Notes: generated by a model from the letters alone, not told the origin. 64,000 nt of DNA from an uncultured virus (IMG/VR IMGVR_UViG_3300042874_000014) (IMGVR_UViG_3300042874_000014), one strand, 5' to 3'; positions 2,445 through 62,246 are shown, counted from the first letter of the stretch. A program made the numbers and translations.

Positions 2445-2472
2445 CACATATCCTCACCTACGGGGGAATGTT
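2445..2472 (-). repeat. dispersed CCCCCGTA motif, copy 1
   Basis: cacatatcctcacctacgggggaatgtt. Confidence 0.9.
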
Positions 2473-2595
2473 CGACATACTTAACATCTTCATCATTCTT
2501 AACATCTTCGGTCGGTACTAGCATTCTCATCATCTTCATCATCTTCGTCAAACACTAGCATACTACATTAAACATCAATTTCGAACCTATAATAC

Positions 2596-2892
2596 AATAC
2601 TAATACTAATACTAATACTAATACTAATACTAATTATATATATAATAATATATAATATATTATATATTATAATATATTATATTATTATTATTATATATAA
2701 TATAACAGTTGAATATATATTGCTAAATCTATTACTAAATCTGTTTTTAAATCTATTGCTAAATCTGTTTTTCTATCTGTTTTTCTATCTATTTTTGTAT
2801 CTGTTGAGGTATGTGATTTGATAAAAAGATTGTAAAAAGATTATAAAAAGAAGACAAGAAGAAGACAAGAAGAAGACAAGAAGAAGACAGAT
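2596..2892. repeat. microsatellite cluster: (ACTAAT)n, pure A/T tract, 12-bp CTAAATCT-type repeats, (AAGAAGAC/AAG)n
   Basis: Tandem units directly visible. Confidence 0.85.
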
Positions 2893-2943
2893 TTAAGTAT
2901 ATGTTTAAGTATATAAGAAGATACGTAAATCTCAAATTTATAG

Positions 2944-2972
2944 AAAATCCCCCGTAAGGGAGGAAGATGTGC
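2944..2972 (+). repeat. dispersed CCCCCGTA motif, copy 2
   Basis: aaaatcccccgtaagggaggaagatgtgc. Confidence 0.9.
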
Positions 2973-3059
2973 TACGTTGCTATGTAGTAAACTTGAATAA
3001 TTTGTAATTAATTATATATAATAGGATATATAATAGGATATAATGATAGATATGATATG

Positions 3060-3396
3060 ACATATGATGTGATGTAAAATTTATATAAAATTTATGTGAT
3101 GTGATATAAATATAAATTTATGTGATGCGATGTGATGATATATATATATATAATATGTGATATATGTGTGATGCTATATTTTATGTGATATTATGTGATA
3201 TTATGTGATATGTGATATTATAAATTATGTGATATTATTTAATATGTGATATTTAATATAAAATTTATGTGTGATATATAATATTTATAATACGTGTGAT
3301 ATAATATTTATAATACGTGTGATATAATATTTATTATTTATAATATAATATGTGATATTTAATATATATAATATAATATGTGATATTTATGTGATG
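3060..3396 (+). repeat. AT-rich array of roughly 20 TGTGAT boxes (candidate origin or regulatory array)
   Basis: Co-oriented TGTGAT boxes, including a tandem duplication ataatatttataatacgtgtgat x2 at ~3278-3323. Confidence 0.8.
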
Positions 3397-3581
3397 CGAG
3401 TAAGTCGTAACCACCCGGTGCGACCGTCGGTGCGAAATGGTAGGATTGAAGTAGGGGGGACATCATGTGAAATACATGGACTTTCTGGAGTGTTCAAAAC
3501 TTGCCGGTGTACTACCACTGGTATCATATAATAGCTAAGGTGCATGAGGTAACTCGTAGTATGCACCTATTCATTTGTACA

Positions 3582-4058
3582 ATGAGTAAATTAGCTCCTG
3601 CTGGTAGTAAGCTTACAGAACGTTCTGTAACTAACTCTACTATGCGGGTTGCTTCTATTACAATCACTGGCAGTAAGGTTAATATGAACCTTGTTGATAG
3701 TGATAACGTTGGACGTTGGATTGTATTATCAGAGAAGCAGTATCGCCACACATTGGCAGGTATCGGTCTCGGTAATACGGCATCATTAAACAGAACCGTT
3801 CTTATGGTTAAAGGTAGTACAGCTTCTGTATCTATCGAAGACCGTAAGGTAGGTGATGTTTATATGAATCAAAACAGTAGCGACGAGAACGCTAGTAAAC
3901 TTTGTGTTGTTGAAAAAGCACATCAGAGTTTGTCTATCGATTCTCTATCGTTGTCTAAGACTAAGGAGACTATGTTGCTAGAAGCGACTATGTCTGACTT
4001 GCTTAGAGAACGTGATGTTACGGTTGATTCAGATGATGCATCTGACGACTTGCGTTAG
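3582..4058 (+). CDS. hypothetical protein with acidic C-terminal tail (first plus-strand gene)
   Basis: Likely start MSKLAP at 3582; ends DSDDASDDLR. Confidence 0.7.
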   Translation: MSKLAPAGSKLTERSVTNSTMRVASITITGSKVNMNLVDSDNVGRWIVLSEKQYRHTLAGIGLGNTASLNRTVLMVKGSTASVSIEDRKVGDVYMNQNSSDENASKLCVVEKAHQSLSIDSLSLSKTKETMLLEATMSDLLRERDVTVDSDDASDDLR

Positions 4059-4069
4059 TAATAGCGAGC

Positions 4070-4615
4070 TATGTGGGTACGTATAACCTACAGAAAAAGT
4101 GTCCAGTAATGGATTAAGTACGTGATGTTTTGTTGCTTTTAGTATAAGAAAAGTAACTACTCGTTGAATCGAGCACGAAATAGAGCATGGAATCACAGTC
4201 GGTATTCTGCCATGCTCTTACTAATACCATTGGGTCTGAATAGACCTCTTAACCAACTACTGTATCTTGTATATGAGTATGACTTCGATGTCGAGTTGGT
4301 TCTAATATGGTGGTTACTAACCCATATACCTAAAGCAAGGATTGGTATATGTTGTATGATTAATTTGACAAATTAAGATTACACCTCTTGCCCTTGTAAG
4401 GAGTAGACTTCCTTATGGCTAACCATCTATGATAATGTGCACAATTATTATAGACATGGTAATTACAATTAACGAGACTATATTATATACACGTCAGGTA
4501 TAATAGATGTCATGTCCGGTGATACAAGTAAGCTACTACTTGTTGAGGGGGTTCTCTATAACCAACTACTATACGTTATGTATGAGTATGACTTCGATGT
4601 CGAGTTGGTTCTATG
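4070..4615 (+). ncRNA. candidate structured ncRNA with duplicated ~54-nt module
   Basis: At least 10 consecutive hairpins; identical 33-mer at 4272-4304 and 4581-4613. Confidence 0.45.
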
Positions 4616-4619
4616 TGCA

Positions 4620-4820
4620 ATAGTAGTACTATTTCTTTACTTAGATGGTCGCACGTCTAATATAGTAGTACTTATTGTTACGTTTAGATGGTAGTACTAT
4701 TCATATAGTAGTACGTATTGCGATATCTTCATGGTCGCACGTCTAATATAGTAGTACAAGTAGCGGCATCTTCATGGTCGTACAAGTAGCAATAGCACAG
4801 CAACTTGCGACATCTTCATA
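4620..4820. repeat. degenerate 43-bp tandem repeat (about 5 units)
   Basis: atagtagtac at 4620, 4662, 4705, 4748, alternating with atggt(c/a)g(c/t)ac at 4645, 4688, 4731, 4774. Confidence 0.85.
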
Positions 4821-4862
4821 CAACATACAACACGTTGCCCTAGTTCATAGTTTTTAACCAGG

Positions 4863-4927
4863 CCCAAGCGTGCTAAGTAAATCAAGTGAATTATATAAAC
4901 TTACCCTACGTCCCAAGCGTGCTAAGT
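4863..4927 (+). repeat. 16-bp direct repeat cccaagcgtgctaagt x2
   Basis: Exact copies at 4863-4878 and 4912-4927, both followed by similar caag(t/c)gaa. Confidence 0.85.
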
Positions 4928-4955
4928 TTAACAAGCGAAATATCAAATCTTATAT

Positions 4956-5084
4956 ATGTTTAAAGTATTAGTTTACAATCAAGCCACTGGTAAGGTTCGT
5001 ACGTTGGTTTTCAATAGCTCAACCGAAGCATATCACTGGCTACAAGTAAACTCTGACTACGAATTGATGGAAGTTCTATCATAA
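4956..5084 (+). CDS. small protein (42 aa)
   Basis: MFKVLVYNQATGKVRTLVFNSSTEAYHWLQVNSDYELMEVLS; AT-rich leader and plausible composition. Confidence 0.55.
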   Translation: MFKVLVYNQATGKVRTLVFNSSTEAYHWLQVNSDYELMEVLS

Positions 5085-5192
5085 TAGTAGTCATAGTTTA
5101 GCTTAATTTATCTCTTCTGCCACGTAATGTGGATTCTGTTACAGTATAGGCTGTATATGTGTTAGTATATATTAATCTTTAATACCATCGTC

Positions 5193-5294
5193 ATGTTTTA
5201 CATAGGTTATATAGTATATGTATCGTTATTATTAGCTCTAGCAATAGGAGTAAATGCTCGTATTAATAGAGTAAATAGACGATATGAGGAATAG
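5193..5294 (+). CDS. single-TM micropeptide (33 aa)
   Basis: MFYIGYIVYVSLLLALAIGVNARINRVNRRYEE: hydrophobic stretch followed by basic residues. Confidence 0.45.
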   Translation: MFYIGYIVYVSLLLALAIGVNARINRVNRRYEE

Positions 5295-6229
5295 TAGGGG
5301 CTGAGCGTGGTATGTCATATCTTAGGGTATGATGTGCCACGTATGTCCCATTCTATATGCTATATGCAGGTGGTATATGATGATATATCTGTTTAATATG
5401 CTAATTTGATTACTATGCTACTTGAATGTGGTATATAATTAGGTATGTTTGATTGAATATAATGTGAATTATGGTAGGTTTAATGATGTAAATTATAGGA
5501 TTATTAGTGATTTAATATATAGTAACAAGTGATTTTGGCGGACTGTGCTGGGATATCTTGATTGATATAGAATGACTAAAATGTGATTTATGGTGTAAAT
5601 TATAGGATAAATTATAAGATTATTAGTGATTTAATATGGGCTTAAAGGTATGATTAATGGTATGATTAATGGTATGTTAAGCGGATTGAATGGTTGATTA
5701 TGTGATAAATTATAGTGTTATTAGTGATGTTATATGGGCTAATGTATCTAGTTTAGTACATACTGCACCCAAGGGTGATATATACTCCCACATCTCTTCC
5801 ACTATCTCACATAATATCCCAGTTAAATCTCTTCCTCACTCTCACCTTAAATCTCACATTACATATTACTTTAAATCTCACCTTAAACATACCCTTAATC
5901 AAGCATATTACCTATTATATTACTTGATTTTACCATATGTTACTTATATTACCCTAATTAGATATACTCGATTAGTTTCAACATTAGACTAATCATATTA
6001 AATTAGCTTAGATAACCATATATATTAAACATGTTACAATATCGGGTCTGTATAATATACTATATACATTTAATATTGCAAGCGTGTTATATATTGTAAT
6101 CTTAAATCAATTAATTCAACCTATGAATGTGATAGCCTTTACGTGGCTCGTAGGATAAGTAAGCTATATGCTGAAACCAATAATCACACAGATATTTATA
6201 ATCAGTTAAACAATTAAACATTTTAGAAA

Positions 6230-6946: not shown

Positions 6947-7221
6947 TGAGAACAGTATTCGAAGTAATATTAGTAATAGCCACTATTGTGGTAATGCTAT
7001 TTGTAGGAGACATCGACGCACTTAATGAATCAAGACCTGTCGAGGTATGCGATAATTATGTTGTTACTAGAGTTGAATTAGTGAATACTGATTCGACTGG
7101 GACAACGTATTTAATCGAATATTCCCCCGTAGGAGGAGATTATAGTCAACTTTGTATGCTAAGCAACGTGCCCTTTATGACAGGTGATACTGTTGTATCT
7201 ATGGCTCCGATGTACTGGTAG
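6946..7221 (+). CDS. small membrane-anchored protein
   Basis: N-terminal hydrophobic helix; start overlaps the upstream stop. Confidence 0.7.
   Translation: MRTVFEVILVIATIVVMLFVGDIDALNESRPVEVCDNYVVTRVELVNTDSTGTTYLIEYSPVGGDYSQLCMLSNVPFMTGDTVVSMAPMYW
7118..7145 (+). repeat. dispersed CCCCCGTA motif, copy 3 (inside CDS)
   Basis: aatattcccccgtaggaggagattat. Confidence 0.85.
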
Positions 7222-7297: not shown

Positions 7298-7714
7298 ATG
7301 ATAAACGAGAAAGAAGCCCCTAAAGGTTATAAGGCAGTACAACCTATTACATCTAATACTTGTATCGGTTGTGCATTTGAAAATAAGTACAACGATAAAG
7401 GGTCATGTATAGTTGATGACCCATGCGGTAATGGAACTCGTGATGATAAACAAGATGTAATATTTGTTAAAGATACTCAAGATACTCAAGATACTCAAGA
7501 TACTCAAGATACTCAAGATACTCAAGATGATACTTTAACATTATTGACATCTATGAAGCTACATACGTCAATTGTTTTCAAGAAAACTGATAATAATACT
7601 GATAGTCCTACAATGGCTATGACTAGAGTTGCATCAGGTTGGATATATCATATATGGTCAGACGACATTGATGCTTACGTACATCATGTATTTGTACCTG
7701 ATAAGATAAGCTAA
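7298..7714 (+). CDS. hypothetical Cys-rich protein with (DTQ)6 linker
   Basis: CIGCAF...C...C...RDD.QDVIF motif; (gatactcaa)6 at 7472-7525. Confidence 0.75.
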   Translation: MINEKEAPKGYKAVQPITSNTCIGCAFENKYNDKGSCIVDDPCGNGTRDDKQDVIFVKDTQDTQDTQDTQDTQDTQDDTLTLLTSMKLHTSIVFKKTDNNTDSPTMAMTRVASGWIYHIWSDDIDAYVHHVFVPDKIS

Positions 7715-14704: not shown

Positions 14705-15240
14705 TGAAGTGTACTAAATGTAAGTTAGCACTAGGTAGAACAAACCAAGTTACTGCATACGGTACACCTAATTCAGAAATATGGTTTATAAAGTTTGCAC
14801 CTAGTTCTGGTGAAGATAAGTTAGGTACTATAATGGGTAGTGATAAATCATATAAGTTTCTATCTCTTATGATTGAATATGGTTATGACTTTAACAATAC
14901 CTATTATACTAGCTTAACTAAGTGTAAAGGTTCATCACGTGTAACAGGTATAGAAACTGATTTATGTATAAAGAACCAACTTAAAGGTGAGATACCTGAA
15001 CCAGCACCTAAGATACTTGTTATATTGGGTATTAATACGTTTAACTTTCTAACACATACCCATACTATCAAAAAGAATAGAGATTTGTATGGTGAATGGT
15101 TTAAGGTAGGAAGATTCGATAACTGTACACTAGCACCTGATTTTACAATATCGACTAAAGATAGTGATATGGAATCTTTTAGATGGCATATTAATTCAAT
15201 TTTAACAAAGTTATCTTTGATAAACATAGTAGGCATATAA
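14704..15240 (+). CDS. uracil-DNA glycosylase family 4-like protein (catalytic motifs degenerate)
   Basis: CxxCxL...RTNQV.AYG, APSSGED..G, TSLTKC...C, PKILVILG. Confidence 0.75.
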   Translation: MKCTKCKLALGRTNQVTAYGTPNSEIWFIKFAPSSGEDKLGTIMGSDKSYKFLSLMIEYGYDFNNTYYTSLTKCKGSSRVTGIETDLCIKNQLKGEIPEPAPKILVILGINTFNFLTHTHTIKKNRDLYGEWFKVGRFDNCTLAPDFTISTKDSDMESFRWHINSILTKLSLINIVGI

Positions 15241-15262
15241 TCCCCACTTACGGGGGGTGTTC
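15233..15262 (-). repeat. dispersed CCCCCGTA motif, copy 4
   Basis: gcatataatccccacttacggggggtgtt, between the UDG-like gene and polB. Confidence 0.85.
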
Positions 15263-15269
15263 TATAAAC

Positions 15270-17306
15270 TTGAGATGTGTGGAATCTTGGATATATGATA
15301 TAGAAGTGTTACCTAATTATTTTGGAGTAACCTTTGAGAATGTGAGTAATACCGATTATAAATTATTTGAAATTTATAACGATAGAATAGGCGATGGTTC
15401 TAAGAACGATATGCTTAAACTAATAGCTTTTCTAACACCTGATAAAACAATAATAGGCTATAATAATTCAAAGTATGATGATGTTATTCTTAAATATGTA
15501 ACTAATACATTATCTAAGCGTACTGTATCGGCTATTACTAATACTAAGATATACGAACTTAGTAAAGATATCGTTGAAGGTATGAAATTAGGTTATATTT
15601 CGAATCCTATAATAGATAAACTTTATTTTAGTAAAATACCTTGTAGAACATTAGATTTAATGAAGATTCTAGCATTAGATAAACAACTTAAATCATTAAA
15701 GCAAACTCTAATTAATGTAAATTGGGAAGATATACTAGATTTCGAACCTCCCCCCGTAAGGGAGGATATTATCGCCAGAGTTTACTATGACGGCAAGAGT
15801 TTAGAATCAATTAACCGAATCAATCAGTTTAATAGATTTGTAACTGCTGATTTCATAGATGATTTACGATATTATAATCTTAATGACGTGCGTGGTACTA
15901 AACACTTGTACAAACACGTTAAAGATGAAATAAGATTACGTTATAGTATTAGTAAGCTATACGGAGTAGATGTACTTAATTCTAGTAGAAGTAATATAAG
16001 TGATATATTACTTGAAAAGTTCTATGCTTCGGCTACGGGGTTAGAACCTTACGAGTTTATCAATGAACGTACTATTAGAACTAAGATGAAGATAGGTAGT
16101 GTCATATCAGATAAGATAAACTTTAAAACAGATATATTTAAAAATTTAAAACATAAGCTAGATTCTAAAGTAATAACCAGTGTAGATGAATTAAAACAAA
16201 CTATTAACTTTAATGGTGTTTTATATGAAATGGGTGCTGGTGGATTACATAGTAAAGATAAACTGGCTATATTTAGAGAAACAGATGAGTATATAATACG
16301 AGATGTAGATGCTGCATCTTATTACCCTAATCTTATTCTGATGCTAAGACTAATACCTAAACATTTAAGGGAAGAGTTCCTTGATGTATTACGTATGATA
16401 GTAACAGAACGATTATTAGCTAAAAAGAACGGTATTCAATTAGTAGCCGAAGCGTTAAAGATTGTTATCAATTCTATATTTGGAAAGTTAGGCTCAGAGT
16501 TTAAATTCATATATGATAGACTAATGATGCTAGCTACTACTGTAAACGGTCAATTATTCTTATTCTTACTCATTGAAGATTTTGTTAGTATAGGTGTTGA
16601 ACCAATATCAGCAAATACTGATGGTATAGTATGTAAGATACCTCGTGATAAAGAAGCTGAATATTACGCAATATGCGATAGATGGAAAGATTTAACAGGT
16701 ATTGATTTAGAATATACTGATTATATTACATACGTTAGACGAGATGTTAATAATTACATAAGTGTTAAACGAGTTACATATGACCCTAAGAAGCATATAG
16801 ATATGTCTATTTACGAAGATGATAAAGGTCAATATATAAAAGATATTAAACGAAAAGGTATGTTTAATAAGTATAAACAATTCGAAGACTTAGCTAAAGG
16901 TGTAGACAAACCTATCATATCACAAGCCCTAGAAGAATACTTTGTAAATGATGTACCGATAGAGAAAACAATAAGAGAAGAAAAAGATATAACTAAGTTT
17001 TTCATAAGTCATAATACGGCTAGTAAGTACAGAAATGTATTACAAACTTTAGTAAAAGGTGAAATAGTTACTGAATATCTACAAAAGAATCTAAGATATT
17101 ATATATCCGCTAAAGGTGGTGTATTATTGAAATATTCTGATAATAGTTATACACATCAAGCTAAAGGTTTATACGTTACTGTAATGAATAAGCTAGTACG
17201 TAAAGAAAATCATTTAGATTATAATATTGATTATCCTTATTATATATCTAAAACTAGAGAAGTGATAAACGGAATTGAAGATAAACAAACAAGTATGTTT
17301 TTTTAA
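15270..17306 (+). CDS. polB: family B DNA polymerase (crAss-type)
   Basis: Exo motifs YDIEV, GYNN..YD, YNLNDV; polymerase motifs DAASYYP, KIVINSIFGK, NTDG. Confidence 0.93.
   Translation: MRCVESWIYDIEVLPNYFGVTFENVSNTDYKLFEIYNDRIGDGSKNDMLKLIAFLTPDKTIIGYNNSKYDDVILKYVTNTLSKRTVSAITNTKIYELSKDIVEGMKLGYISNPIIDKLYFSKIPCRTLDLMKILALDKQLKSLKQTLINVNWEDILDFEPPPVREDIIARVYYDGKSLESINRINQFNRFVTADFIDDLRYYNLNDVRGTKHLYKHVKDEIRLRYSISKLYGVDVLNSSRSNISDILLEKFYASATGLEPYEFINERTIRTKMKIGSVISDKINFKTDIFKNLKHKLDSKVITSVDELKQTINFNGVLYEMGAGGLHSKDKLAIFRETDEYIIRDVDAASYYPNLILMLRLIPKHLREEFLDVLRMIVTERLLAKKNGIQLVAEALKIVINSIFGKLGSEFKFIYDRLMMLATTVNGQLFLFLLIEDFVSIGVEPISANTDGIVCKIPRDKEAEYYAICDRWKDLTGIDLEYTDYITYVRRDVNNYISVKRVTYDPKKHIDMSIYEDDKGQYIKDIKRKGMFNKYKQFEDLAKGVDKPIISQALEEYFVNDVPIEKTIREEKDITKFFISHNTASKYRNVLQTLVKGEIVTEYLQKNLRYYISAKGGVLLKYSDNSYTHQAKGLYVTVMNKLVRKENHLDYNIDYPYYISKTREVINGIEDKQTSMFF
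15745..15772 (+). repeat. dispersed CCCCCGTA motif, copy 5 (inside polB)
   Basis: aacctccccccgtaagggaggatatt. Confidence 0.85.
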
Positions 17307-24252: not shown

Positions 24253-24499
24253 CGAAGTATTGCAGAGATTAGAACAAGAGCGTAAAGAACTATCAGATAA
24301 ACAAGGTAAGCTAAAAGCTTTTATAGATTCTGATGAATTTAATACATTAAGTATGCCTGAAAGTGCTATACTATTAGTACAATCTGATGTAATGACGATG
24401 TACTATAATGTATTATCGCTAAGATTACTTATAGACAGTAATATCAAGGACATCAACAATTCCCACCTTACGGGGGAAGATACATCAAACAACAAGTAG
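24245..24499 (+). CDS. small helical-hairpin protein (crAss001_48-like)
   Basis: RL..ERKEL..K..KL.AFI...LL..Q..VM..Y..VL..R pattern. Confidence 0.65.
   Translation: MNNEVLQRLEQERKELSDKQGKLKAFIDSDEFNTLSMPESAILLVQSDVMTMYYNVLSLRLLIDSNIKDINNSHLTGEDTSNNK
24455..24482 (-). repeat. dispersed CCCCCGTA motif, copy 6 (inside CDS)
   Basis: caacaattcccaccttacgggggaagat. Confidence 0.85.
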
Positions 24500-26105: not shown

Positions 26106-27303
26106 TGAAAGTACAGTCTTTTTAATAAAGATTGCAAGTAAAGATGTATTATTTTATACAGCTACTAAACAAGTTAATAAGATATATAAATCTTGGGGGT
26201 CTTATCGAAAATCCCCCGTAAGTGGGGAATATGTGCCTGAGAATCACGGTAAATACAAGTCTATGAGCGATAAACTAACACATGAATTTATAAAGCTTAT
26301 AAGCGATAAGATTAATGATGGTTACAAACAATTAGATAATTACATGACGTATGAGCAATTCATAGAATATGTAAATGACAATAAGCTATTAGATACTATC
26401 GATATAACTACTGATAAGAATGGTAACGTTAAACCACAATTAGCTAAACCTTTTAAAGCAAATGTTATAAAAGGTTTACGGATAGTACAAGATAAGATTA
26501 ATGGCGTTAGAGCACTACCTCAATTAAAATCATCTGACAACGTTGATTTATTCTCTAGTGCGGGCTTTGTATGTAGAATCACGTCGAGAGAAGGGATTAC
26601 ATACAGAGTACCTCATTTAGAGGAGTTATTAAGAACATTATTAGTTATAGCAGAAGATGAAATAGGACGCCATGTAATATTAGATGGTGAGTTATATATT
26701 GATAAAGCAAGTGTTACAACTATCGCTGGGGCAGCTAAGAATCAGAATAATGATTTACATTCAGAGCTAGTGTTTAAGTGGTATGATATAGCTATATCAG
26801 ATATGGATAATAACAAACGTGATTATTATCGTAAATTAATATTCGATAAGTTTGCTGCTTATAATACAGATAAGAAGATAGTATTAATCGAATCGCTGTA
26901 CCTTAATAGTGATGCTGAAACAGTAGATTACGGTAACAAACGAATAGACGCTGGTGAAGAAGGTATAATAATAAGAAATCCTTATGCTACTTATACATTT
27001 GGCGGTCGAGATAATAGAATGATGAAGTTTAAACGAGTTTATGACGGTGAGTTTAAACTTATTGATATTATTAGTAGTGGTAAAGATAAATATCGAGGTG
27101 AACCTATTGCTATGTTTGTATGTAAGAACGATATAAACGATTTAGTTTTTAACGTAACGCCCGAAGCTAGTAAAGAATTACGTAGAGAGTATTACATTAA
27201 ACAACACGAATTAATAGGTAAATCAATAACTGTTACTTACAGAGAGAGAACTGATAAAGGTTTACCATTTCACACTAACGGTATAATTAGAGATTATGAA
27301 TAA
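26089..27303 (+). CDS. ATP-dependent DNA ligase
   Basis: PQLAK, QDKINGVR (motif I), LDGELY, EGIIIR, MKFK; C-terminal OB fold. Confidence 0.9.
   Translation: MSTTFDESTVFLIKIASKDVLFYTATKQVNKIYKSWGSYRKSPVSGEYVPENHGKYKSMSDKLTHEFIKLISDKINDGYKQLDNYMTYEQFIEYVNDNKLLDTIDITTDKNGNVKPQLAKPFKANVIKGLRIVQDKINGVRALPQLKSSDNVDLFSSAGFVCRITSREGITYRVPHLEELLRTLLVIAEDEIGRHVILDGELYIDKASVTTIAGAAKNQNNDLHSELVFKWYDIAISDMDNNKRDYYRKLIFDKFAAYNTDKKIVLIESLYLNSDAETVDYGNKRIDAGEEGIIIRNPYATYTFGGRDNRMMKFKRVYDGEFKLIDIISSGKDKYRGEPIAMFVCKNDINDLVFNVTPEASKELRREYYIKQHELIGKSITVTYRERTDKGLPFHTNGIIRDYE
26207..26236 (+). repeat. dispersed CCCCCGTA motif, copy 7 (inside ligase)
   Basis: gaaaatcccccgtaagtggggaatatgtgc. Confidence 0.9.
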
Positions 27304-32400: not shown

Positions 32401-34862
32401 ATGAATTTATTATACTCTTCTTCCGATTTGGCTTTAGCTTTAATAGCATCTGCCCAGAATATACCGCTAGTGTTTGACTTATTTATAGTAGCTACCTTTT
32501 CGTAATAATTTGCTACAACTTTGTCATTAGCTATTAAATTGTTACGTTCTCTACGTATAAGTTCTAAGGCTTTCTTATCTGTTTGCGATATATTATTAAA
32601 ATCGAAATTACTAGAATACTTATCGTATATCACACTACTTCGTTCACTTAATTCATGAACTAGGTCTCGTTGCTCAGGACTCAATGTATTAAATATCATA
32701 TAATACTCTTCTGTAAATTCTGTTTCTAAGTGTTTAGCTTTCCACATTGCGAACTCATTAGATTTCTCATTATATTTATTAGAACCTACTCTTAATAACG
32801 ATAGCTCTAATACATACTCTTCATACGTATCTAAATATTCATAGTTAAACTCATCTATCAATCGACCTTGCTCATCTATAAGCTTACTGAAAAAAGCAAT
32901 TCGGTCGTTAGCTGACATACCTAGTGTAACAAATTTTGAACTTCTATTTACAAAATCTGATGTAATAGTTTGACCTATTAGTCTAACACTATTTAGTTTA
33001 TCATGCCTACGCTTAGTTATCAATGTTGCTAAATAGTTATCAATATCCATAAGAGCATCAAAGTTACCTTGTGTTGAATTTATATCTTTTATAGCATCAA
33101 TATAAGTTTTAGAATCTTCTACTTCAATACCCTTAGCTCGTAATGATTCAAGAACTACATCGAAGTATTTATACATTAAGCTATTATATAATTGCTCATT
33201 GGCTACAAACTTATCTGATTCTTCTTTAATGTTCTGTATTAAGTCTAATGTAGCTCTCTCTATATCAGTCTTGTTAGGGATATTTGATGTAAAGTCTACT
33301 AATTCTTTATTCGCTTTTACGTTTGCTAAAAACAATCGAATATTATTTAATTTATTTGTCAAATCTATTCTATCAGAATCAGTAAACTCATTATTATCTT
33401 TGTTTAAATAGTTATTTTGTAAATCGACCAATAAGTTAGCTATCTGTAAATTCGTTGAGCTATCGTGTGCCGCTATTTCAATCAAAGCATCATATAGATT
33501 CTTTTCATTATTAGATTCTTCATAAGCTACTAATAGCTTTTCAACTATATTTCGGGTATGGGTTGTTGATTCTTTAAAGGCTTTAGCTTTGTTATGATTG
33601 CCGTACTCTTCGATAAAAGCATTTAGTTTGATTACTTTTCTATGTATAAATTCTTGTAGCGACTTTAAAGCGTTGGTTCGGTTTATAGTAGATATTTGGC
33701 TGTTACTGTTTGCAATAGCTCGTTTTATCTTAGATATTGCAGACGTATCATTAAATAAGTACTGTATGATTTTAGTCAAATCTGTTTCAGTTGCTTTATT
33801 TATCCTAGCCACTACTTTCCTTTTCCATGCTAAGAAAGCATCATAGCCGGGATATGTACCAGTTGAACTCTTATTAAATTCATTCTTTAAATCTCTACTA
33901 TTAAAAGCTATTGATAGTAATTCCATTAACAATAGTTCAGGATTATCAGTATCAATATTTGTTAAAGCTTCTTTAAATAAAGGTGCTTCTTTAAATAGTA
34001 TATTAACACCCTCTTCAAATAATTCATCAAACGATAAACCTAATTTAGCACTAGCTGCTCGTAGTAAGAGCATAGTAGAGGCACCAGTGTTATTTATACC
34101 ATGCTTTGAATCATATACTAATCTTGGATTAATCATAGTATTACCGTTATCCTTATCTATTACGAATGTTGTATTTTGAGTAGGGTCGATACTATAATTA
34201 AACGAAACATTCCCGTGAGTTAATGCTTCGGCTATATCCGATTGTAATTTATTCTGGGCTAGTATAGCTTTTGATGAACTACTTAATGGGTCATTTACAG
34301 GCATACCGAACTCGTCTAGTTCTACGTTAAGTCCTGCACCATCTGTTATATCTGAACCTGAAAGTTCAAATGGTTCTTGCATTACTAAGTTACCGTTAGC
34401 ATCGAATAAATCAGGTTCTAGTTCAACAACTGGAACACCTATAAGCTTATATAGTTTCTTCTGTACAGGCATAGCTTGAATTATGTTTTCTCGCTTATCT
34501 ACCATTAGTGTATCATTAGTTTTACTATTATCGAAATTGGTATCGTAAACAAATACAGCAACGTACTTACTTTCCTCACCTACGGGGGGATTTAAGACTA
34601 CCTCCACATCTTCGTATTTAGTATTGTCTTTATTATGCAACCAGTATAACAATGGCTCATTTCTATCATTTACTACTTTAGATGTAGTACTAGCATCTGG
34701 CTCATTTACCCAATCACCAAACTTAGCACGAAATGATAATTGTTGTGTATTAAGAAATATATTAACTGCATCACTATCGTTAAAATTATTAACTTTAAGT
34801 GATTTAAAAAGATGGCTCACATTACCCGAGCCATCTTTTACTGAACTTTTACATACGCCCAT
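29499..34862 (-). CDS. large virion-ejected polyvalent protein
   Basis: 1787 aa; N-terminal F.AKFGDW...SKVV...EPLL motif; C-terminal HG.Y...D, G.M.MQFR.W and a hydrophobic helix, as in crAss ejection proteins. Confidence 0.75.
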   Translation of the reverse strand: MGVCKSSVKDGSGNVSHLFKSLKVNNFNDSDAVNIFLNTQQLSFRAKFGDWVNEPDASTTSKVVNDRNEPLLYWLHNKDNTKYEDVEVVLNPPVGEESKYVAVFVYDTNFDNSKTNDTLMVDKRENIIQAMPVQKKLYKLIGVPVVELEPDLFDANGNLVMQEPFELSGSDITDGAGLNVELDEFGMPVNDPLSSSSKAILAQNKLQSDIAEALTHGNVSFNYSIDPTQNTTFVIDKDNGNTMINPRLVYDSKHGINNTGASTMLLLRAASAKLGLSFDELFEEGVNILFKEAPLFKEALTNIDTDNPELLLMELLSIAFNSRDLKNEFNKSSTGTYPGYDAFLAWKRKVVARINKATETDLTKIIQYLFNDTSAISKIKRAIANSNSQISTINRTNALKSLQEFIHRKVIKLNAFIEEYGNHNKAKAFKESTTHTRNIVEKLLVAYEESNNEKNLYDALIEIAAHDSSTNLQIANLLVDLQNNYLNKDNNEFTDSDRIDLTNKLNNIRLFLANVKANKELVDFTSNIPNKTDIERATLDLIQNIKEESDKFVANEQLYNSLMYKYFDVVLESLRAKGIEVEDSKTYIDAIKDINSTQGNFDALMDIDNYLATLITKRRHDKLNSVRLIGQTITSDFVNRSSKFVTLGMSANDRIAFFSKLIDEQGRLIDEFNYEYLDTYEEYVLELSLLRVGSNKYNEKSNEFAMWKAKHLETEFTEEYYMIFNTLSPEQRDLVHELSERSSVIYDKYSSNFDFNNISQTDKKALELIRRERNNLIANDKVVANYYEKVATINKSNTSGIFWADAIKAKAKSEEEYNKFMSRNSEGNDAFWAKIDEIFKNYAKNNIRKEVRKLLKNRLANYYDYTGMLDPTRMSKDEIELSKRASRLSNYSFGKEFGDASEPVVEAIAAGASLETILDLIEQHGTAPSGHKGLPSHLKKAITAFYDMVEHTPTEYYYNALTEAKKLSADEYDEWYTNNHHQNDFGRWQPLDIWTVMLPKDKTAKYTQAKMNYRINTGINPKYINKNHRVSHGGVPVPKSGKFENDKFKKLTQEEKEYLTYLKDLYRSTVGTYESSFTEQQFIPSESTVKIEGDNKVEKTIKTDVEGQIVYDVLFRNSSKINQKPTIKPLDKLKNETFDEYNNRLLEHVNLNFGLETDLDNMYDAIRDKNNEIRKANSEMHASAVSKDLLLSMPKFIEAGLNYKMKSEMHPEIRLLLSFIRNLENITRDKGMVKQVLDRTTKTKLRPASPETISGKESRLAKRIQDEYRMVFAEQFLDEGKYDKALKVIRTYTSYRGMAWNPFSAVKNVVYGGIMTAVEAGGAMHFNIHGLAVAQARVANSITGNMSKPELGFSNIESAMVAVGNILYDAMERGTESSSLVDGTIVDKTLLDIGKDRVKDLFNVGYLGQQAGEYLMQNSTLFAMLESHRVIDGKVYSKKQYLESVRESVKGVITSKNKDIAKQLAEKNEIARKNAEAVFEAAPTVYSQFELNNGFLSIKQDSDLTTTTFGELITKIRGVNHKIHGIYNPEDKGAIEHEMLGQMLMQFRHWVRSGWTKRMGTRGGFNVKAFYNVRRDEWDKGSWKVTASFLTSGLGKDYVHDRLGRESQSKREYIKTALATQREYLSNIGLHWNLLSEYDKADVRRTAYEFLAIAAAYAVLAMLKNLDDDEEALQESLAYNFLIYQVDALKSELMAYTPMGWFNEGAKFMKAPMSGWTTVDLVYRFGEALIMFPINSLNGNDKANYYKGGIHSKELKLNVLRYKMTPLEVHYRRFMNLPDNNTFYKLH
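34565..34594 (-). repeat. dispersed CCCCCGTA motif, copy 8 (inside CDS)
   Basis: cttactttcctcacctacggggggattta. Confidence 0.85.
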
Positions 34863-40000: not shown

Positions 40001-41201
40001 CTAGATTTTTAAACTTATTAAGTTTTGATAGTTTAGCCCATATACCTATACCTATAAGATTCAAAGGGTCTAATAATATCTCCTCTGCCATATTAGCATC
40101 ATTCTTCTCACCAGTTAGAGCATCACCTATACTATAATCATCTTTATACGACGACTGTACCATTTTAGCAGGTATCGTTAACATAGATAAAGCATTACCT
40201 ATTTGTCCAAGTCCTGATAATACAGGGTGGTCTTTATAATTATTTAGTATTTCTATCTTCTCGTTGCGAGTATAATTACTATTATCCATAATACTTTGTA
40301 TAGCCGCCATAGGATTAACACTACTTAATGCTTCAAAACCTTGTCTAGTATCATTCCATATAGTAGATTGATTTTCAGGTAATTTAGTTAATACTTCCTG
40401 CTCTTTATCAGTGAATGACTCTAACCATGAAACTCTATCTGTATCACCTTGTGGTCTCAACCTCATTAGCTCACGAGCCGTATTTATATCAGCAGCTTCT
40501 TGATACTTACGTATTCCCTCTTGTCTAAGATATTCTCGCCAACTAACAGCGTCAATTCGTTTAGCAGCTTCATGACCAATAGGTGCATTAAATCGTTTCT
40601 CGATGTATGCTTCTAAGTCTAATGGATTGTTTCTCTTATATGCTGCTTCTAGCCTACTACCATCTGTTGCATATACTGATACTTCGGGTATATAACTATT
40701 ACTTGCTGTTAACATACCATCTCTAGCTGCTCTTTCTATAAACTCAGCTTCTGTTAATTTAGCATTAGCGTCTATATTTTTATTATAAACTACTTCTTCA
40801 TCATCGACAGCTATCTGCTTTTTATTTTCAATTATATCAGCTGGAACAACAGGATTATTGGCATTGTTAGTAACTGGTGGGATAATAGGTTTGGCAGCAG
40901 GTTTAGTAGAAGTAGTAGAACCGGTAGTAGATTCTACCGGTTCGTTATCTTCGTTATCTATTACTTCGTCAATCTCAGTAATCACATTTCCTCCCTTACG
41001 GGGGAATCTACTTCCATCATTGGCATATTCTGCGGCAGTAGGTAGTCTATCAATATATTTATCAATACAGTCATGACAGCCACTACTTATATACTTTTGT
41101 ATTTTAGTTCTATCCTTTTTAGGTATTATGACTATATCACCTAATTTGTTTTTAAGTATCAGTTCCGAACCTTCGGCTTCAACATTTATTGTCTTCTTCA
41201 T
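37014..41201 (-). CDS. large protein with Pol-beta-family nucleotidyltransferase motif, coiled coil and TM helix
   Basis: FGSSAL...HDLDFLI...ELDFV; LMAGSAAVGVAGGLVAGISLL. Confidence 0.65.
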   Translation of the reverse strand: MKKTINVEAEGSELILKNKLGDIVIIPKKDRTKIQKYISSGCHDCIDKYIDRLPTAAEYANDGSRFPRKGGNVITEIDEVIDNEDNEPVESTTGSTTSTKPAAKPIIPPVTNNANNPVVPADIIENKKQIAVDDEEVVYNKNIDANAKLTEAEFIERAARDGMLTASNSYIPEVSVYATDGSRLEAAYKRNNPLDLEAYIEKRFNAPIGHEAAKRIDAVSWREYLRQEGIRKYQEAADINTARELMRLRPQGDTDRVSWLESFTDKEQEVLTKLPENQSTIWNDTRQGFEALSSVNPMAAIQSIMDNSNYTRNEKIEILNNYKDHPVLSGLGQIGNALSMLTIPAKMVQSSYKDDYSIGDALTGEKNDANMAEEILLDPLNLIGIGIWAKLSKLNKFKNLGEAYKSVEGLSKASKLQTLRAMANNAVPGLRKLDNTISETANKALDIAIPSRIDNKIALAEAEHSKTIKEMGNLDVTANDTYRLLIDNKNSISDEQAAIKFRAIRDMDQRLNKRDNIRDNTTENKRTKPRYEQGIFTNARDGKIINEAMRVEGDKIIINSSNDANKPAMIIDYATGEEVHFKNTVKPTTETTLSREGEYAENVVDEMHMETKYLKTVSGNKNMVEDMTGGKAFGSSALVIDGKLNHTTHDLDFLITQADYDKNVANKLKHVQDTTFSKKHTINPEFGEQGELDFVIIQSNKKTGKAQGHIANELFRQLDPDAYFAAAEYAIKNNKEIVIPYTAKELLDKTDTVLKTAMDYFISDTPKHGFKIFNMIANTDKAFMRKAQLKHAQGLFGSEVKLAPNFNFKAMSKESKIKLIREMKYDLKEPYLSKIVDDDERMQLLMNEWYVKNTGISRGLDSDKNIAKWLDDSLYGHWKLRTNKGGQLRDVSGLNAVKTGNSKHGDVYANLQLKLKHSDTDPFTMMEEIKRQTDGLAELSPEDLEIVQDIARKYNIPEDKVQKMRCGKDFGKAFLANDDTGKAFDEFTERTGIRIISTDDYGNSTYASIAGKIDRKIEEFKLARETEGGKGIRSRSQRTNEMAIYNENMSFKTKGLTKDELERKLYYFKYRNSSGHKYKSRTNDDDFKTLEGYIKANSATLDIRIAKAKKSFDNLESNKQAIIDKMIANKVEQESATNEQLIKLKAENKVLEENFKTINGELQVYRQRLRDLNNAVHDMVKLQDKYYDTRVQLMAGSAAVGVAGGLVAGISLLDPFDMMPGDDVDEKLLNESSMNLLGGVPGMPNTNGKVSESDLTKYLLDNPDVVQTLLQRNASDEINKTYNNRDSRRKINYLLDILGEDNLGNVQTIMDDKELYKVDEDNLARAVYNLNTILIEHAQQVKKVTDANFMYKQVENNGLRSKNNTMNNIDVHFEKLKEKLKSKSNNNKNFTKTKK
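40983..41010 (-). repeat. dispersed CCCCCGTA motif, copy 9 (inside CDS)
   Basis: cacatttcctcccttacgggggaatcta. Confidence 0.9.
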
Positions 41202-41205: not shown

Positions 41206-52313
<11,108 letters not shown>

Positions 52314-56783: not shown

Positions 56784-56894
56784 ATTGTTACTATTTAATT
56801 AATTATTGATTTATATGTATTATGTATATTACGTGTCTAATCTATATTATATGTCTAATGTACATTACGTAGATACGTAGATACTTGTCTAATG

Positions 56895-57005
56895 TAAATT
56901 CCCCCGTAAGGGAGGATATGTGCGACTTATGCTATTTTAAGTAAACCTTAGCATACTTTAGCATACATCAATAGCACATACTTCTCACCTACGGGGGAAT
57001 GTTCT
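56895..57005. repeat. inverted pair of CCCCCGTA motifs (copies 11 and 12)
   Basis: ttcccccgtaagggaggatatgtgc ... gcacatacttctcacctacgggggaa. Confidence 0.9.
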
Positions 57006-57386
57006 ATTATCTTTGACTCTTCGTAATCTTAGATATTATATCAATCTACTATTATCACTTGTTATATAATCAAATACATCACTACTTCTAATAACAGATT
57101 TTGGTCGGACAATTAGGTCATCTGCCGTGCTAATTCTTGTATTATGTATTCGTTTGTATTTTACGTTCTATGTTGGCTATGTATAACTCTGTTTACAGAT
57201 TATATATAGCATACCTAACCCTACTAATCGCTTTTAATTGCTGGCTAAAAGTAATGTTTTTTTATGACAAATCCAAATTTTTGATATATTATTTTTAAAA
57301 TTTTATTATATTATTTATTTAAACATATACCTTATTATTGCCTATATACTATATATTGTTTCTAGTTATACCTTATTTATTATAAG

Positions 57387-60300: not shown

Positions 60301-62246
60301 TGAATAGTACATGTATCATTAACTATACCTGAATAACCAGTAGGTTCAATATCATTTATACCGAATGTATTTCTTAATCTATTTTCACCACTAATTCCAT
60401 CGGTTACGTTAAAATAATGATAAGCCCTATTGAAACACATACCTAGAAAGAAGTTATGATACATAGCAAAGTATGTAGTACCGGGATGCTGTGCTGCATA
60501 TACCATACCAGCTGTGCTAAAAGCAAACTTCATATTACTGAATTGTTTACTTTCTAAGAACTCATTATTGATAGTGGTAGTAATAGGTATTATCTTTAAT
60601 ACGTTATGTACGTGAGTTCTAGCGTAAGTACTAGAGCCAAAAGCACTCGTATAATCATCTGTTACTTCATAGCTGTTATCTGTTAATGAGGCAGCACTCT
60701 GTAAGTTAGGCACTAAGTCTATACTAACAGTAGGTGGCATATTAGCGAACGTTTGACCTATTATATTCTCGATAGTATCTATTGCATTAAATTGGCAATT
60801 AAGATAATTAGCATCTGGGAACTTATGATGTCTTACGTTACCTGTTAAACCTTGCATAGTACTTGGATATATTTCATCTTCGTTATGCCAGTACCCCATT
60901 CGACCAGTAGTCGGACTAGTAAGTGCTACAATAGTTTCAAATTGAAATCGTTTACCATCACCGTTACTTATGCTTACACATTCAGAGAAATTAGCATCGT
61001 TAGCCACTGGTTGTAAATCATTAGCTAGAGGTAGTCTACCCGGAATATGATAACTTTTTGTAAGCTTTCCTGAGTTAAGTCTACCGGCAACATATAAAGC
61101 TACTACTTCACCCGGCATAAAACCTGTTCTATGAAACACCATTAAAGGATTTTTATAAGAACCTTTTAAACCATCTAGTGAGATAGGGTCTTCGTACACC
61201 CATTGCACATCTATACTATTAGCCATCTCTTGTAGGTTCACACTATCGCCGTCTTCTATTGATGCTACGACTAGCCTATCTTCTATAACAGTACCAGTAT
61301 CAACTTTATACATAAGTGCTGAATCTATAATAATATCAGCTTTTGAAATCTCTATAAAGTTCTTACCGTCAAGTATTACAATATCCTCACTACCGTCTAC
61401 GTTTAAAGTATCGGCAGAATAAGCTCGTTGTATGCCCTCAACACTTGTGTATACCACTACTTGATATTTCTCAAACTTAATATCTAAATTATCTATTTTA
61501 ATCTTTATAGCTTTAGATGTTCTAGTGTTACCTTTATCACCCATGTAATTACTAAATTCATCATTACCTACGGAAGGTGTTATAACAATAGGTCTACTAA
61601 AGTTAGATACTAATGTCATATCTCCATCTTTGTACAAATATCGAATACCTACTAAATATGAGCCAGTCTTCATTACTCCGTTATTATCTTCAACAGATAG
61701 TAAATTGAATCGTGGAACTTTAATATTAGAATGTTGATAAATTAAACTTATCTCATCATTAGCATTAGTAGTTAATTCTTTATTTGCGTCTAATGGGTCT
61801 ATGAATGGTAGAGTATTTATATTAAGTATGCACAATCTATTTGAATTAGTTTCTATACCATTCCACCAAGATATGATTAAATCTTTGTTTCTATCATAGG
61901 TATATTTCCCACTTACGGGGGGATGTTCGTCATACTGCATATGTTTAGTTCTCAAAATAGTCTTAAGATTATTGTCTAAATCGAATGTTTCTATTTTAAA
62001 GAATTTCATATAACCTGCGGTATGTTCAATCTCACCACCCATACCTGTGGAGAATATAACACTAAGCTCTGGGGTATCTATCTTACCTATGAATGTAAAC
62101 TCTAGTTTATCATGTTTAGAAAATCCAAGTTCGTTAGATATAGACTTATTGTCATTATTAACTACTATATTTCTAGCATGATTCCAAGAGCCGTGCTCAT
62201 TCTTGTTAATCCGTTTATCTTTCGATAATCTTTTATTAATATCCAT
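57387..62246 (-). CDS. tail stabilization/muzzle protein
   Basis: 1619 aa beta-rich; W.HARNI...NE.G N-terminus, G.GDIF, W.AEHDY.P, W.FNEFRD; crAss gene order. Confidence 0.75.
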   Translation of the reverse strand: MDINKRLSKDKRINKNEHGSWNHARNIVVNNDNKSISNELGFSKHDKLEFTFIGKIDTPELSVIFSTGMGGEIEHTAGYMKFFKIETFDLDNNLKTILRTKHMQYDEHPPVSGKYTYDRNKDLIISWWNGIETNSNRLCILNINTLPFIDPLDANKELTTNANDEISLIYQHSNIKVPRFNLLSVEDNNGVMKTGSYLVGIRYLYKDGDMTLVSNFSRPIVITPSVGNDEFSNYMGDKGNTRTSKAIKIKIDNLDIKFEKYQVVVYTSVEGIQRAYSADTLNVDGSEDIVILDGKNFIEISKADIIIDSALMYKVDTGTVIEDRLVVASIEDGDSVNLQEMANSIDVQWVYEDPISLDGLKGSYKNPLMVFHRTGFMPGEVVALYVAGRLNSGKLTKSYHIPGRLPLANDLQPVANDANFSECVSISNGDGKRFQFETIVALTSPTTGRMGYWHNEDEIYPSTMQGLTGNVRHHKFPDANYLNCQFNAIDTIENIIGQTFANMPPTVSIDLVPNLQSAASLTDNSYEVTDDYTSAFGSSTYARTHVHNVLKIIPITTTINNEFLESKQFSNMKFAFSTAGMVYAAQHPGTTYFAMYHNFFLGMCFNRAYHYFNVTDGISGENRLRNTFGINDIEPTGYSGIVNDTCTIHGNNYNANNDKELTAISSTSHLDSSGANTLFKAKQSVVVRVTGTITFLWNALRGGTSGCNFGQQDDVVPELISIGVYKATTNKTNYLNYDGNLIEYSNQTLVFVTENHQAYSGSITIDETIYLELGESLVFRMLLGHSEVGVPLNDNPSYLLSADNHELDINIISNTLRLDVFDISELNLDLDGSMFGRVLGLKFGNIIIPHEANDKLQALEFFYAKRDIFNASKITEDSPLLGSTQAEIISNPHSIFKMHPFDLFAGGKANAKGKYLDMHTQMVALNNQANNNYEYNLLTDTYCFTTAHRHREYSKAEFVAPNNKKGVYDNDKREEAIAATFNVDREIPAFSIGTLSNYYRNMYKDFYNQTLVSTGLLIYLDDYSMNQGLLANTLALKHYGGDTYFSLYYKRIIYDMIESYIAIPVRTFANVGLRHGNDDDKMFYPRNDAGNYLAKLDEMNGSLTTFNLSDIHTTWDYNIDYSILNEFKSSAINNPTILHLYKFPYRIARSPKQGNESQLINWRNFREDEYYEMPKNKGAIRKLESLTDVLIIHTEFSLFIAKVKDVLELSATENSYLGKGDIFDREPNEIILDKNGYFGTVNSIANIVTRIGYLAIDVNRRIIGLFNGKELQELQNIEMATWFDKALQMSNNQDNPYTRSGIITTMDDYNNRLILTIKDAYPLADITDGQYNSILDSGTVLTFEILDTAIYETITIRLFVDNTWTNITLPVINANGKQLAIYTLPNSISIIYILQPAVTIRLYNGNLLNNMTMSYDIALSGWVAEHDYNPSVYMNNRNKISMIDNNNLFVMNNGNYGVYTDDTINESYVDIILKEPIDVDKIFESISFETEVLDSDNVLIPNKTISALYIYDDNQCTNRLEINKTNQEWFEQESGREVTATWYFNEFRDAIINNLQPFISYRGVIDHTKLDNDIQVQKDWFDKSEFISKYVVVRLIIDNKDNLKVILNSIASKTRKAHR
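61899..61928 (-). repeat. dispersed CCCCCGTA motif, copy 13 (inside tail gene)
   Basis: ggtatatttcccacttacggggggatgttc. Confidence 0.85.

Follow-up and report, generated by a model that had tools for sequence, protein, structure and literature searches.

Several kinds of short sequence words that recur within phage or plasmid genomes, or that mark the starts of their synthesis, have been described. The promoters of the T7, T3, SP6 and K11 RNA polymerases (RNAPs) span ~23–30 bp, differ between phages in step with the enzyme that uses them, are all oriented with the genes and mark transcription units. The virion RNAP (vRNAP) of phage N4 uses three early promoters that are co-directional with the genes and form a stable DNA hairpin (5–7-bp stem, 3-nt loop). 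G4 oric, the single-strand initiation (ssi) sites ssiA and ssiB of RSF1010 and the ColE2 origin are strand-specific sites read by a dedicated primase or initiator, with a specificity that co-evolves with the protein. Start-associated sequences in cluster K mycobacteriophages sit just before start codons, and phages T5, phiKMV and tf have a nick-site consensus, the tf nick sites being located on both strands. We compare with these systems, and with Chi and the FtsK orienting polar sequences (KOPS), a GC-rich word that is dispersed over the genome of an uncultured virus (IMG/VR IMGVR_UViG_3300042874_000014), in a stretch of 64,000 nt referred to below as the window. Our tentative preference is to read its 13 copies as members of an old family of cis-acting sites that is common to this cave/biofilm phage and to the Intestiviridae, including the prototypical crAssphage, and that may serve DNA replication, through priming or loading.

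An earlier note on this DNA, made from the sequence alone, listed 13 copies of CCCCCGTA, and all of them lie at the coordinates and on the strands given there. The rough estimate in that note of less than one chance copy agrees with 100 dinucleotide-preserving shuffles, in which the word occurs 0.22 times on average and at most twice. No other 8-, 9- or 10-mer of the window is as enriched as the motif core. Each of the 13 copies has the sequence CCCCCGTARG; permitting one mismatch in this 10-mer adds none, and relaxing the core to CCCGTR yields 23 matches with the motif context at the same 13 only, so that the family has no decayed members in the window. The flanks are indeed conserved: the aligned copies conform to ~[T/A][C/A]GAA[C/A]A[T/C][T/C]-CCCCCGTA(A)-G[G/T]G[A/G]GGA-W(W)ATGTGC, ~34 nt that comprise, in this order, an upstream box, the C-run, GTA or GTAA, a purine arm and the (W)ATGTGC tail. 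The ATGTG part of the tail is whole in 6 of the 13 copies, among them all 4 in the two long intergenic regions. Eight copies are located inside coding sequences, as had been claimed, and the remaining five are intergenic, although only ~8% of the window lies outside the listed open reading frames (ORFs), which amounts to a preference for non-coding DNA (P=0.0025). Orientation does not follow transcription, again in line with the earlier note: 9 copies are sense and 4 antisense relative to the local genes. Every antisense copy has a sense copy on the other strand 89–1744 bp away, and the 3 unpaired copies are all sense.

The in-gene copies are translated into different peptides, all as quoted previously (SPVGGD, PPVRED, FPRKGG, SHLTGE and FPPYGG). 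One frame of the motif always includes a stop codon (CCC CCG TAR), and the in-gene copies use the remaining frames, on both strands. The claim that selection acts on the DNA is borne out by the differing frames and peptides, the lack of decayed copies and the conservation, with lineage-specific variants, in distant relatives. When compared with homologous proteins, the in-gene copies of the window appear to be substitutions rather than insertions. The copy in the family B DNA polymerase (PolB) lies over a segment that reads PP[IV]xx[ED] in the homologues; a 98%-identical PolB retains PPVRED, and a 50%-identical one has PDCTDEE. The copy in the 1619-amino acid (aa) virion protein overlays a conserved P-[IV]-x-G peptide without an insertion. 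In both proteins, the peptide underneath is of an ancestral P-[IV]-x-[GE] type. The ligase has ~9 extra residues beside the site, and this case is ambiguous between insertion and substitution.

The 98%- and 50%-identical PolB relatives are known as proteins only, and PolB-based scans of IMG/VR and of metagenome contigs retrieved DNA relatives only at ≤37% identity. In loci fetched solely by PolB (~30% identical), the top word of a k-mer scan is TCCCCCGTA, with 4–6 copies per 13–22 kb in 16 human-gut contigs that make up one species-level group (95–99% identity). The prototypical crAssphage (BK010471.1) carries 31 sites, ACYCCCCGTRGAGGATGGA, of the form [KWD]ACYCCCCGT[AG]GAGGATGGA, of which 16 have GTA and 15 GTG. 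These sites are divided 18/13 between the strands, with 11 intergenic and 20 in genes, and 12 sense, 17 antisense and 2 of undetermined orientation.

We counted sites in further relatives with the pattern CCCCGTRNRGR and used its reverse, which has no match in any phage record, as a control; patterns of this kind miss diverged variants of the motif. The matches number 34 in cr110_1 and 33 in cr11_1 (both Delmidovirus), 28 in cr3_1 (Diorhovirus), 12 in crAss002, 9 in cr107_1, 4 in cr8_1, 3 in cr271_1, 4 in Rudgehvirus and 0 in Whopevirus ctbg_1. The pattern has 0 matches in cr127_1 (Crevaviridae), cr114_1 (Suoliviridae), crAss001, phi14:2, a marine contig (G001) and a fragment (G002). With a wider pattern, YCCCYGTRRRKG, Rudgehvirus shows 23 sites, 18 of them CCCCTGTA, a C-to-T variant with T before GTA. 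The wider pattern is found 11 times in crAss002, once in cr271_1 and not at all in cr8_1 and Whopevirus, all within Intestiviridae, and has 0 matches in five genomes outside that family (Steigviridae, Suoliviridae, Crevaviridae and one marine contig).

The positions of the sites, like their sequence, persist. Of the 33 cr11_1 sites, 32 are matched on the same strand of cr110_1 at two synteny offsets, compared with a chance average of 12.2 (maximum 20); the offset windows were picked after the data were seen. A PolB site is common to crAssphage and the loci L019 and L016, within a lineage-specific loop insertion of ~22 aa, and a ligase site is shared by crAssphage, in full, and by L019 and L016 as near-sites that are likewise read P-V-x-E/G. 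In the window, PolB and ligase carry their sites at other positions. From these alignments, the sites look old and stable, with some orthologous sites kept across genera. The loop in PolB (BK010471.1 8953–11280, L019 10001–11977, L016 7491–9764) follows GGLHS and carries its motif copy antisense; it is absent from the window, Rudgehvirus, L009 and L010.

In five Bacteroidota genomes, which stand in for the hosts, the pattern is not enriched over its reversed control (39/42, 34/61, 108/150, 21/24 and 66/70). Genome contigs scanned with a crAssphage 15-mer gave, among the matches listed, scattered single matches in unrelated bacteria, and when IMG/VR was scanned with one 16-mer variant, the 8 matches were single and unrelated. 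Phages of similar Bacteroides hosts have different motif variants. Because the word is not enriched in the five Bacteroidota, changes in concert within a lineage and differs between phages with similar hosts, its reader is almost certainly encoded by the phage. The phage-encoded site system proposed in the earlier note is thus supported, given also the conservation in distant relatives.

Several observations on related sequences stand apart from these counts. Four IMG/VR loci (L001, L003, L005 and L006) contain at 301–316 an unrelated perfect hairpin, TCCTCCC-CCGTAA-GGGAGGA, with identical flanks. Some intergenic copies in crAssphage (28040–28215 and 95700–95905) have an extra upstream GC-rich arm (GACCCGCTNCG...CGCT), which together with the partner copy makes up a ~45-bp inverted repeat around a ~70-nt AT-rich spacer. 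In OQ198719.1 (Rudgehvirus) and in about one-third of the crAssphage sites, the C-run is located between two like 6–7-mers ~12 bp apart (TGTAAAC..TGTAAAG; GTAGAC..GTAGAG) that look like tandem half-sites, a direct-repeat pattern seen in the consensus. Base composition around the sites shows a slight G depletion over ~100 nt downstream in crAssphage and none in the window.

In most genomes tested, sites on the same strand are spaced evenly. The coefficient of variation (CV) of same-strand spacing is, for the two strands, 0.31/0.43 in crAssphage, 0.53/0.46 in cr11_1, 0.59/0.37 in cr110_1 and 0.38/0.55 in cr3_1, compared with ~0.92 for random placement (all P≤0.015). The values are 0.21 and 0.19 in cr127_1 (P ~0.01), 0.35 on the minus strand of Rudgehvirus (P=0.0002) and 0.40 and 0.38 in the window (P 0.06 and 0.02). 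When the strands are pooled, the spacing is much less even (CV 0.65–0.84) because sites on opposite strands may sit 31–600 bp apart. Such opposite-strand pairs exceed random expectation in the window (3 versus 0.78, P=0.04), cr127_1 (3 versus 0.35, P=0.005) and cr11_1 (8 versus 3.4, P=0.02); crAssphage (6 versus 2.9, P=0.07) and Rudgehvirus (4 versus 1.7, P=0.10) show a weak excess and cr3_1 (3 versus 2.6) shows none. Since the evenness is per strand, the sites may be read in a strand-specific manner. The intergenic preference is pronounced in crAssphage (11 of 31 sites versus 8% non-coding DNA, P=2e-5). Long genes carry sites as well, in particular, the crAssphage RNAP gene with four of alternating orientation, and the 20 in-gene sites of this phage show no preference for gene ends.

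The Crevaviridae phage cr127_1 (NC_055886.1), which lacks matches to the patterns above, has a 45-bp dispersed GC-rich word of its own, aCGAATtTCGGAACACCTCTCGCCCTTGTGGCCAtTAaAC, in 10 copies on both strands, for example, at 19670–19725, 28670–28900 and 42010–42260 (L181 and L182). For cr127_1 and Rudgehvirus, sites were assigned to genes by hand from the annotation. Seven of the ten copies are intergenic, three close opposite-strand pairs are present and the four unpaired copies are all sense. Likewise, 7 of the 10 are sense and lie 20–300 nt upstream of gene starts, and one copy ends ~20 nt before the primase start. This word resembles that of the window in having a GC-rich core within an AT-rich genome, in its per-strand evenness and in an upstream GAACA(C/T) box and a downstream TGTGC box, but differs in the core itself (CTCTCGCCCTTGTGGCC), in the smaller number of copies and in their mostly intergenic placement. 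The resemblance of the boxes is weak. The two phages also have the same superfamily 1 (SF1) helicase and the same order of replication genes.

That order, helicase-PolB-SNF2-RecT-gp19-SSB-primase-ligase, is common to the window and the Intestiviridae. A homologue of the SF1 helicase was detected in all 8 Intestiviridae tested and in Crevaviridae, and none was found in crAss001, phi14:2, cr114_1 and G001, genomes that are free of the motif. Thus, in their distribution across genomes, the dispersed GC-rich words appear to go with the SF1-helicase replication module and do not track the vRNAP or virion genes, because all Crassvirales possess both of these. On either side of the divergent switch region of the window, copies 2459(−) and 2949(+) are directed outward; they flank AT-rich repeats and adjoin an array of ATGTGAT units. 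In crAssphage, convergent pairs at 95.7–95.9 kb and 28.1–28.2 kb are located upstream of two repL genes, and one of them adjoins 27-nt direct repeats; the accessible part of a preprint (PMC10983915) puts a predicted origin immediately in front of a repL gene.

It is this link with the module, together with the origin-like surroundings, that leads us to favour replication as the process. A sequence-specific phage protein that co-evolves with the sites would read them as DNA, and the sites would act one strand at a time and would have to recur at intervals of a few kilobases along each strand. In regions that lack intergenic DNA, they would be written into genes at places where the peptide nearly fits already. 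They could then serve as internal loading or priming points for strand synthesis, similar to primosome-assembly or ssi sites, with close opposite-strand pairs by repeat-rich, origin-like regions acting as two-way start points. In its broadest form, the proposal is that Intestiviridae, the window relative and, with another word, Crevaviridae share an evenly spaced, strand-specific genome punctuation of 25–45 bp that co-evolves with a replication-module protein and provides many internal start or loading points, with so strong a need that even essential genes have to accommodate the word. We consider this generalization possible but doubtful. Like G4 oric, the RSF1010 ssi sites and the ColE2 origin, which occur as oppositely oriented pairs at an origin, the sites extend over tens of bases and include oppositely oriented pairs, here next to origin-like DNA; strand-specific action and a co-evolving reader would be further points in common, priming at the window sites being conjectural. 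They differ in that dozens of them are spread evenly over 90–100 kb, compared with one or two per replicon at the origin.

A considerable number of observations count against replication as the process. Evenness is lacking on the plus strand of Rudgehvirus (CV 0.95, P=0.65), is not significant in crAss002 (n=4 and 7) and is only borderline on the plus strand of the window (P 0.06). Shared ancestry confounds the link to the replication module, which comes down to one or two independent events. The helicase is also present in Whopevirus and Obtuvirinae, where the pattern has only 0–4 matches, a diverged motif not having been sought there. To the right of the origin-like region, the two strands of the window carry equal numbers of sites; therefore, a simple model in which only the lagging-strand template from one two-way origin is marked does not fit. 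A RepL-like initiator after the repeat array is not supported, as ORF 3501–4058 yields E=4 and no Pfam match at E≤1. The unpaired copies, 7 of 7 sense in cr127_1 and the window combined, are equally promoter-like. Finally, known primases require just 3–5 nt.

The last but one of these points leads to the main competitor, a transcription signal, whereby the sites would be promoters, or promoter and terminator punctuation, for the crAss RNAP or for the host RNAP with a phage factor, and the antisense copies would yield antisense or primer RNAs. We regard this explanation as rather unlikely, even though the architecture is that of a phage-RNAP promoter set: asymmetric, 25–45 bp long, near-identical within a genome and varying in concert between lineages, with some copies in genes, as in the T7, T3, SP6 and K11 sets. 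The enrichment in intergenic DNA fits as well, as do the sense majority in the window (9 of 13, including 3 of 3 unpaired, with an outward copy on either side of the divergent switch region) and the cr127_1 copies in front of gene starts. However, unlike T7-group promoters, many copies are antisense or mid-gene and both strands are evenly populated, and no match to the T7-type RNAP family was detected among the window proteins in Pfam/PHROG-type family scans. In crAssphage, antisense sites make up 17 of the 29 that can be assigned, and 20 of all 31 sites are in genes without a gene-end preference; in the window, 5 of the 9 sense copies are gene-internal (PolB aa 160, ligase aa 44 and three giant ORFs); and promoters are not expected to be evenly spaced on both strands. 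The Steigviridae have a homologous vRNAP but lack the motif, which speaks weakly against the vRNAP as the reader. In the part of 10.1101/2020.03.07.982082 available to us, the early transcripts of the phi14:2 vRNAP have no common upstream motif and the middle promoters of phi14:2, which belongs to another family, are described as sigma-70-like. Compared by eye, none of the promoter spacings for Bacteroidetes sigma-A, extracytoplasmic function-type or sigma-54 factors fits the word. A cassette of stop codon, Shine-Dalgarno sequence and start codon (TAA-GGAGG-ATG) was also rejected: the spacing is too short, fewer than half of the copies have an ATG, and the word occurs within open frames.

Per-strand evenness with a bounded largest gap would also be expected of a phage-private polar sequence similar to Chi or KOPS, at which a strand-tracking translocase or helicase-nuclease changes its behaviour so that phage DNA is spared or directed. 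Such words are strand- and orientation-specific and, like the sites, occur once per several kilobases per strand; the phage encodes a Dda/RecD-like SF1 helicase (exonuclease V PHROG match) and a PD-(D/E)XK exonuclease, lineage variants exist and the Bacteroidota genomes are not enriched. The known examples, however, are 5–8 nt long and shared with, and enriched in, the host genome, compared with at least 20 nt for the phage-private motif that shows no enrichment in the five Bacteroidota genomes. No polarity switch in orientation is seen, with both strands equally populated. Gam-like nuclease inhibitors are annotated in relatives, the close opposite-strand pairs are left unexplained and the case is purely inferential, so that we deem this explanation improbable. 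There is a similarly small chance that the sites are architectural or packaging elements through which a DNA-binding protein, such as one of the HU/IHF-like virion proteins, which the earlier note names among the candidate readers, organizes, condenses or ejects the genome. Regular spacing along the genome and frequent inverted pairs agree with this idea, but the evenness is per strand and not pooled, orientation should matter little for such a role, and HU/IHF-like genes are annotated in crAss001, which is motif-free. A short selfish element, of no use to the phage and propagated by insertion or short-patch gene conversion, comparable to yeast mitochondrial GC clusters or Rickettsia palindromic elements, would account for GC-rich islands in an AT-rich genome, within genes on either strand, and for the extra residues in the shared PolB loop and beside the window ligase site. 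Yet, the PolB and virion-protein sites of the window involve no insertion, no copies are decayed, 32 of 33 positions persist between species (and some sites between genera), spacing is even and the variant change in Rudgehvirus is concerted, all of which makes this possibility very improbable. The chance is just as slight for a hairpin formed in transcripts by the G-run strand (pyrimidine arm, YUAC loop, G-run) that affects the stability, processing or antitermination of messenger RNA (mRNA). The predicted RNA fold of the G-run strand does surpass shuffles in crAssphage (−5.3 versus −2.8 kcal/mol; exceeding the C-run strand in stability at 24 of 31 sites), L019 (−6.7 versus −1.9; 6 of 6 sites) and the window (−8.1 versus −2.7; 8 of 13 sites), and in Rudgehvirus the G-to-A change puts an A-U pair in place of G.U. 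But the G-run strand is mRNA-sense at just 4 of 13 window and 17 of 29 crAssphage sites, a G-run pairs with any pyrimidine run through G.U pairs, so that the fold may be a by-product, the cr127_1 core gives only 2–3 bp (paired by eye, not folded) and no Rfam family matches.

At the DNA level, the hairpin invoked in the earlier note fares poorly. The loop rule, by which every copy leaves C-GTA-G or C-GTAA-G, is valid in the window (4 and 9 copies, respectively) but breaks down in relatives, where GTG loops and T before GTA occur. The stable c(GNA)g or c(GNNA)g DNA mini-hairpin is contradicted by GTG in 15 of 31 crAssphage sites and by T before GTA in 18 of 23 Rudgehvirus sites. DNA folds no better than shuffles in crAssphage (−1.3/−1.6 versus −1.3/−1.2 kcal/mol) and L019 (−0.9/−1.0 versus −0.7), and somewhat better at the window sites (−2.9/−3.2 versus −1.2), the stems of which need bulges. 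The analogy with N4 vRNAP promoters extends to a GC-rich inverted repeat, a loop of 3–4 nt and a phage that injects an RNAP. It does not hold beyond that, given the 13–34 sites per genome (in the window, 13 copies, 8 in coding sequences and 4 antisense), the lack of a conserved DNA hairpin, the loop variants GTG and T-GTA-A and an RNAP of the two-barrel, DFDID type: the 3702-aa vRNAP ORF has DFDID at aa 3061 and matches crAss RNAP genes, that is, the two-barrel and not the N4/T7 type. In sheer copy number, 10–30 copies of a conserved 13–20-bp word per genome, the start-associated sequences of cluster K and the nick sites of T5, phiKMV and tf are comparable.

Few viruses of the human gut are as abundant as the prototypical crAssphage and its relatives, the replication and transcription control of which are little understood. 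A word of 20–45 bp that is present at 10–34 evenly spaced places per genome, extends even into the genes for polymerase, ligase and RNAP and is conserved between gut phages and a cave phage with a PolB only ~30% identical provides a testable handle on crAss biology. Two cultured phages carry the word, namely, Rudgehvirus jaberico (23 sites; grown on Bacteroides cellulosilyticus WH2) and crAss002 (12 sites; grown on B. xylanisolvens), and the natural C-to-T variant of Rudgehvirus is a ready specificity test. The word also could aid the recognition and classification of these phages in metagenomes. We found no published description of it in literature searches that did not extend to the supplementary promoter-motif list of 10.1101/2020.03.07.982082 (14 crAss-like genomes); the accessible portions of a Crassvirales review (PMC10136315) and of PMC7886860 contain no relevant term.

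Judging by its predicted proteins, the window represents a divergent crAss-like phage with replication genes in the Intestiviridae order. Pfam matches include crAss001_48 and CrAss_Ring_1, and PHROG matches include PolB, primase, a Dda-like helicase and ligase, among others; no transfer RNA (tRNA) or Rfam family was found in the window, motif sites included, and a megablast search of 20 kb of it against GenBank phages gave no match. Metagenome runs listed for this phage comprise 11 DNA datasets (cave, biofilm and soil) and no RNA dataset. Genes are directed leftward at 1–2329, rightward at 3501–29289 and leftward again at 29499–63815. The motif copies and the elements next to them are collected in Table 1; the ATGTGAT array and the AT-rich repeats are possibly linked to the motif, the unit being similar to the (W)ATGTGC tail.

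Table 1 Copies of the dispersed word and adjacent repeats in the window
Feature	Span	Strand	Orientation and context
Intergenic copy, core 2459	2442..2475	-	Sense; points to leftward gene block (first ORF start 2329)
AT-rich tandem repeats	2588..2889	.	Between divergent copies 2459(-) and 2949(+)
Intergenic copy, core 2949	2940..2973	+	Sense; points to rightward gene block; followed by ATGTGAT array
Array of 15 same-strand ATGTGAT units, origin-like	~3050..3400	+	Just past copy 2949(+)
Copy 7124, in 91-aa ORF (6946-7221)	7115..7148	+	Sense; ~150 nt ahead of ORF starting 7298
Copy 15249, intergenic core	15232..15265	-	Antisense; between ORF 14704-15240 and PolB; 3' part overlaps last codons of that ORF
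Copy 15751, in PolB, ~aa 160	15742..15775	+	Sense; PPVRED; no insertion versus homologues
Copy 24469, in C-terminal tail of crAss001_48-like ORF 24245-24499	24452..24485	-	Antisense; SHLTGE
Copy 26213, in ATP-dependent DNA ligase ORF, aa 44	26204..26237	+	Sense
Copy 34581, in 1787-aa ORF (RNAP-associated homologue), aa 92	34564..34597	-	Sense
Copy 40997, in 1395-aa ORF, aa 66	40980..41013	-	Sense; other frame, FPRKGG
Copy 42713, in 3702-aa vRNAP ORF, ~aa 3196	42704..42737	+	Antisense; FPPYGG
Intergenic copy 56901	56892..56925	+	Antisense; converges on next copy, 89 bp off
Intergenic copy 56990	56973..57006	-	Sense; ~190 nt before start (56783) of ORF 54933-56783
Copy 61914, in 1619-aa virion protein ORF, aa 109	61897..61930	-	Sense; PPVSGKY over conserved P-[IV]-x-G, no insertion

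The replication module of the window phage may be mosaic in origin. Among 13 genomes tested, the closest relative of its SF1 (Dda-like) helicase (12624–14078) is that of the Crevaviridae phage cr127_1 (42% identity, compared with 33–39% for Intestiviridae); for PolB and primase, the nearest match is Rudgehvirus within the set of genomes examined, which did not include cr127_1. The window also encodes a GroEL-like chaperonin (24501–26105; PHROG 5725, E=8e-51). At 4058–5690, 1.6 kb are devoid of ORFs of at least 80 aa and of tRNA or Rfam matches, and contain a 43-nt repeat in 3.2 copies (4645–4783). A perfect 9-nt tandem repeat, AAGATACTC, is present in 6.6 copies at 7470–7528, within ORF 7298–7714, and the vRNAP gene includes, at 49672–49777, the short tandem repeats TGC (10.7 copies), TGCCGATGA (3.6 copies) and AGGAGGTGTAAC (3.8 copies).

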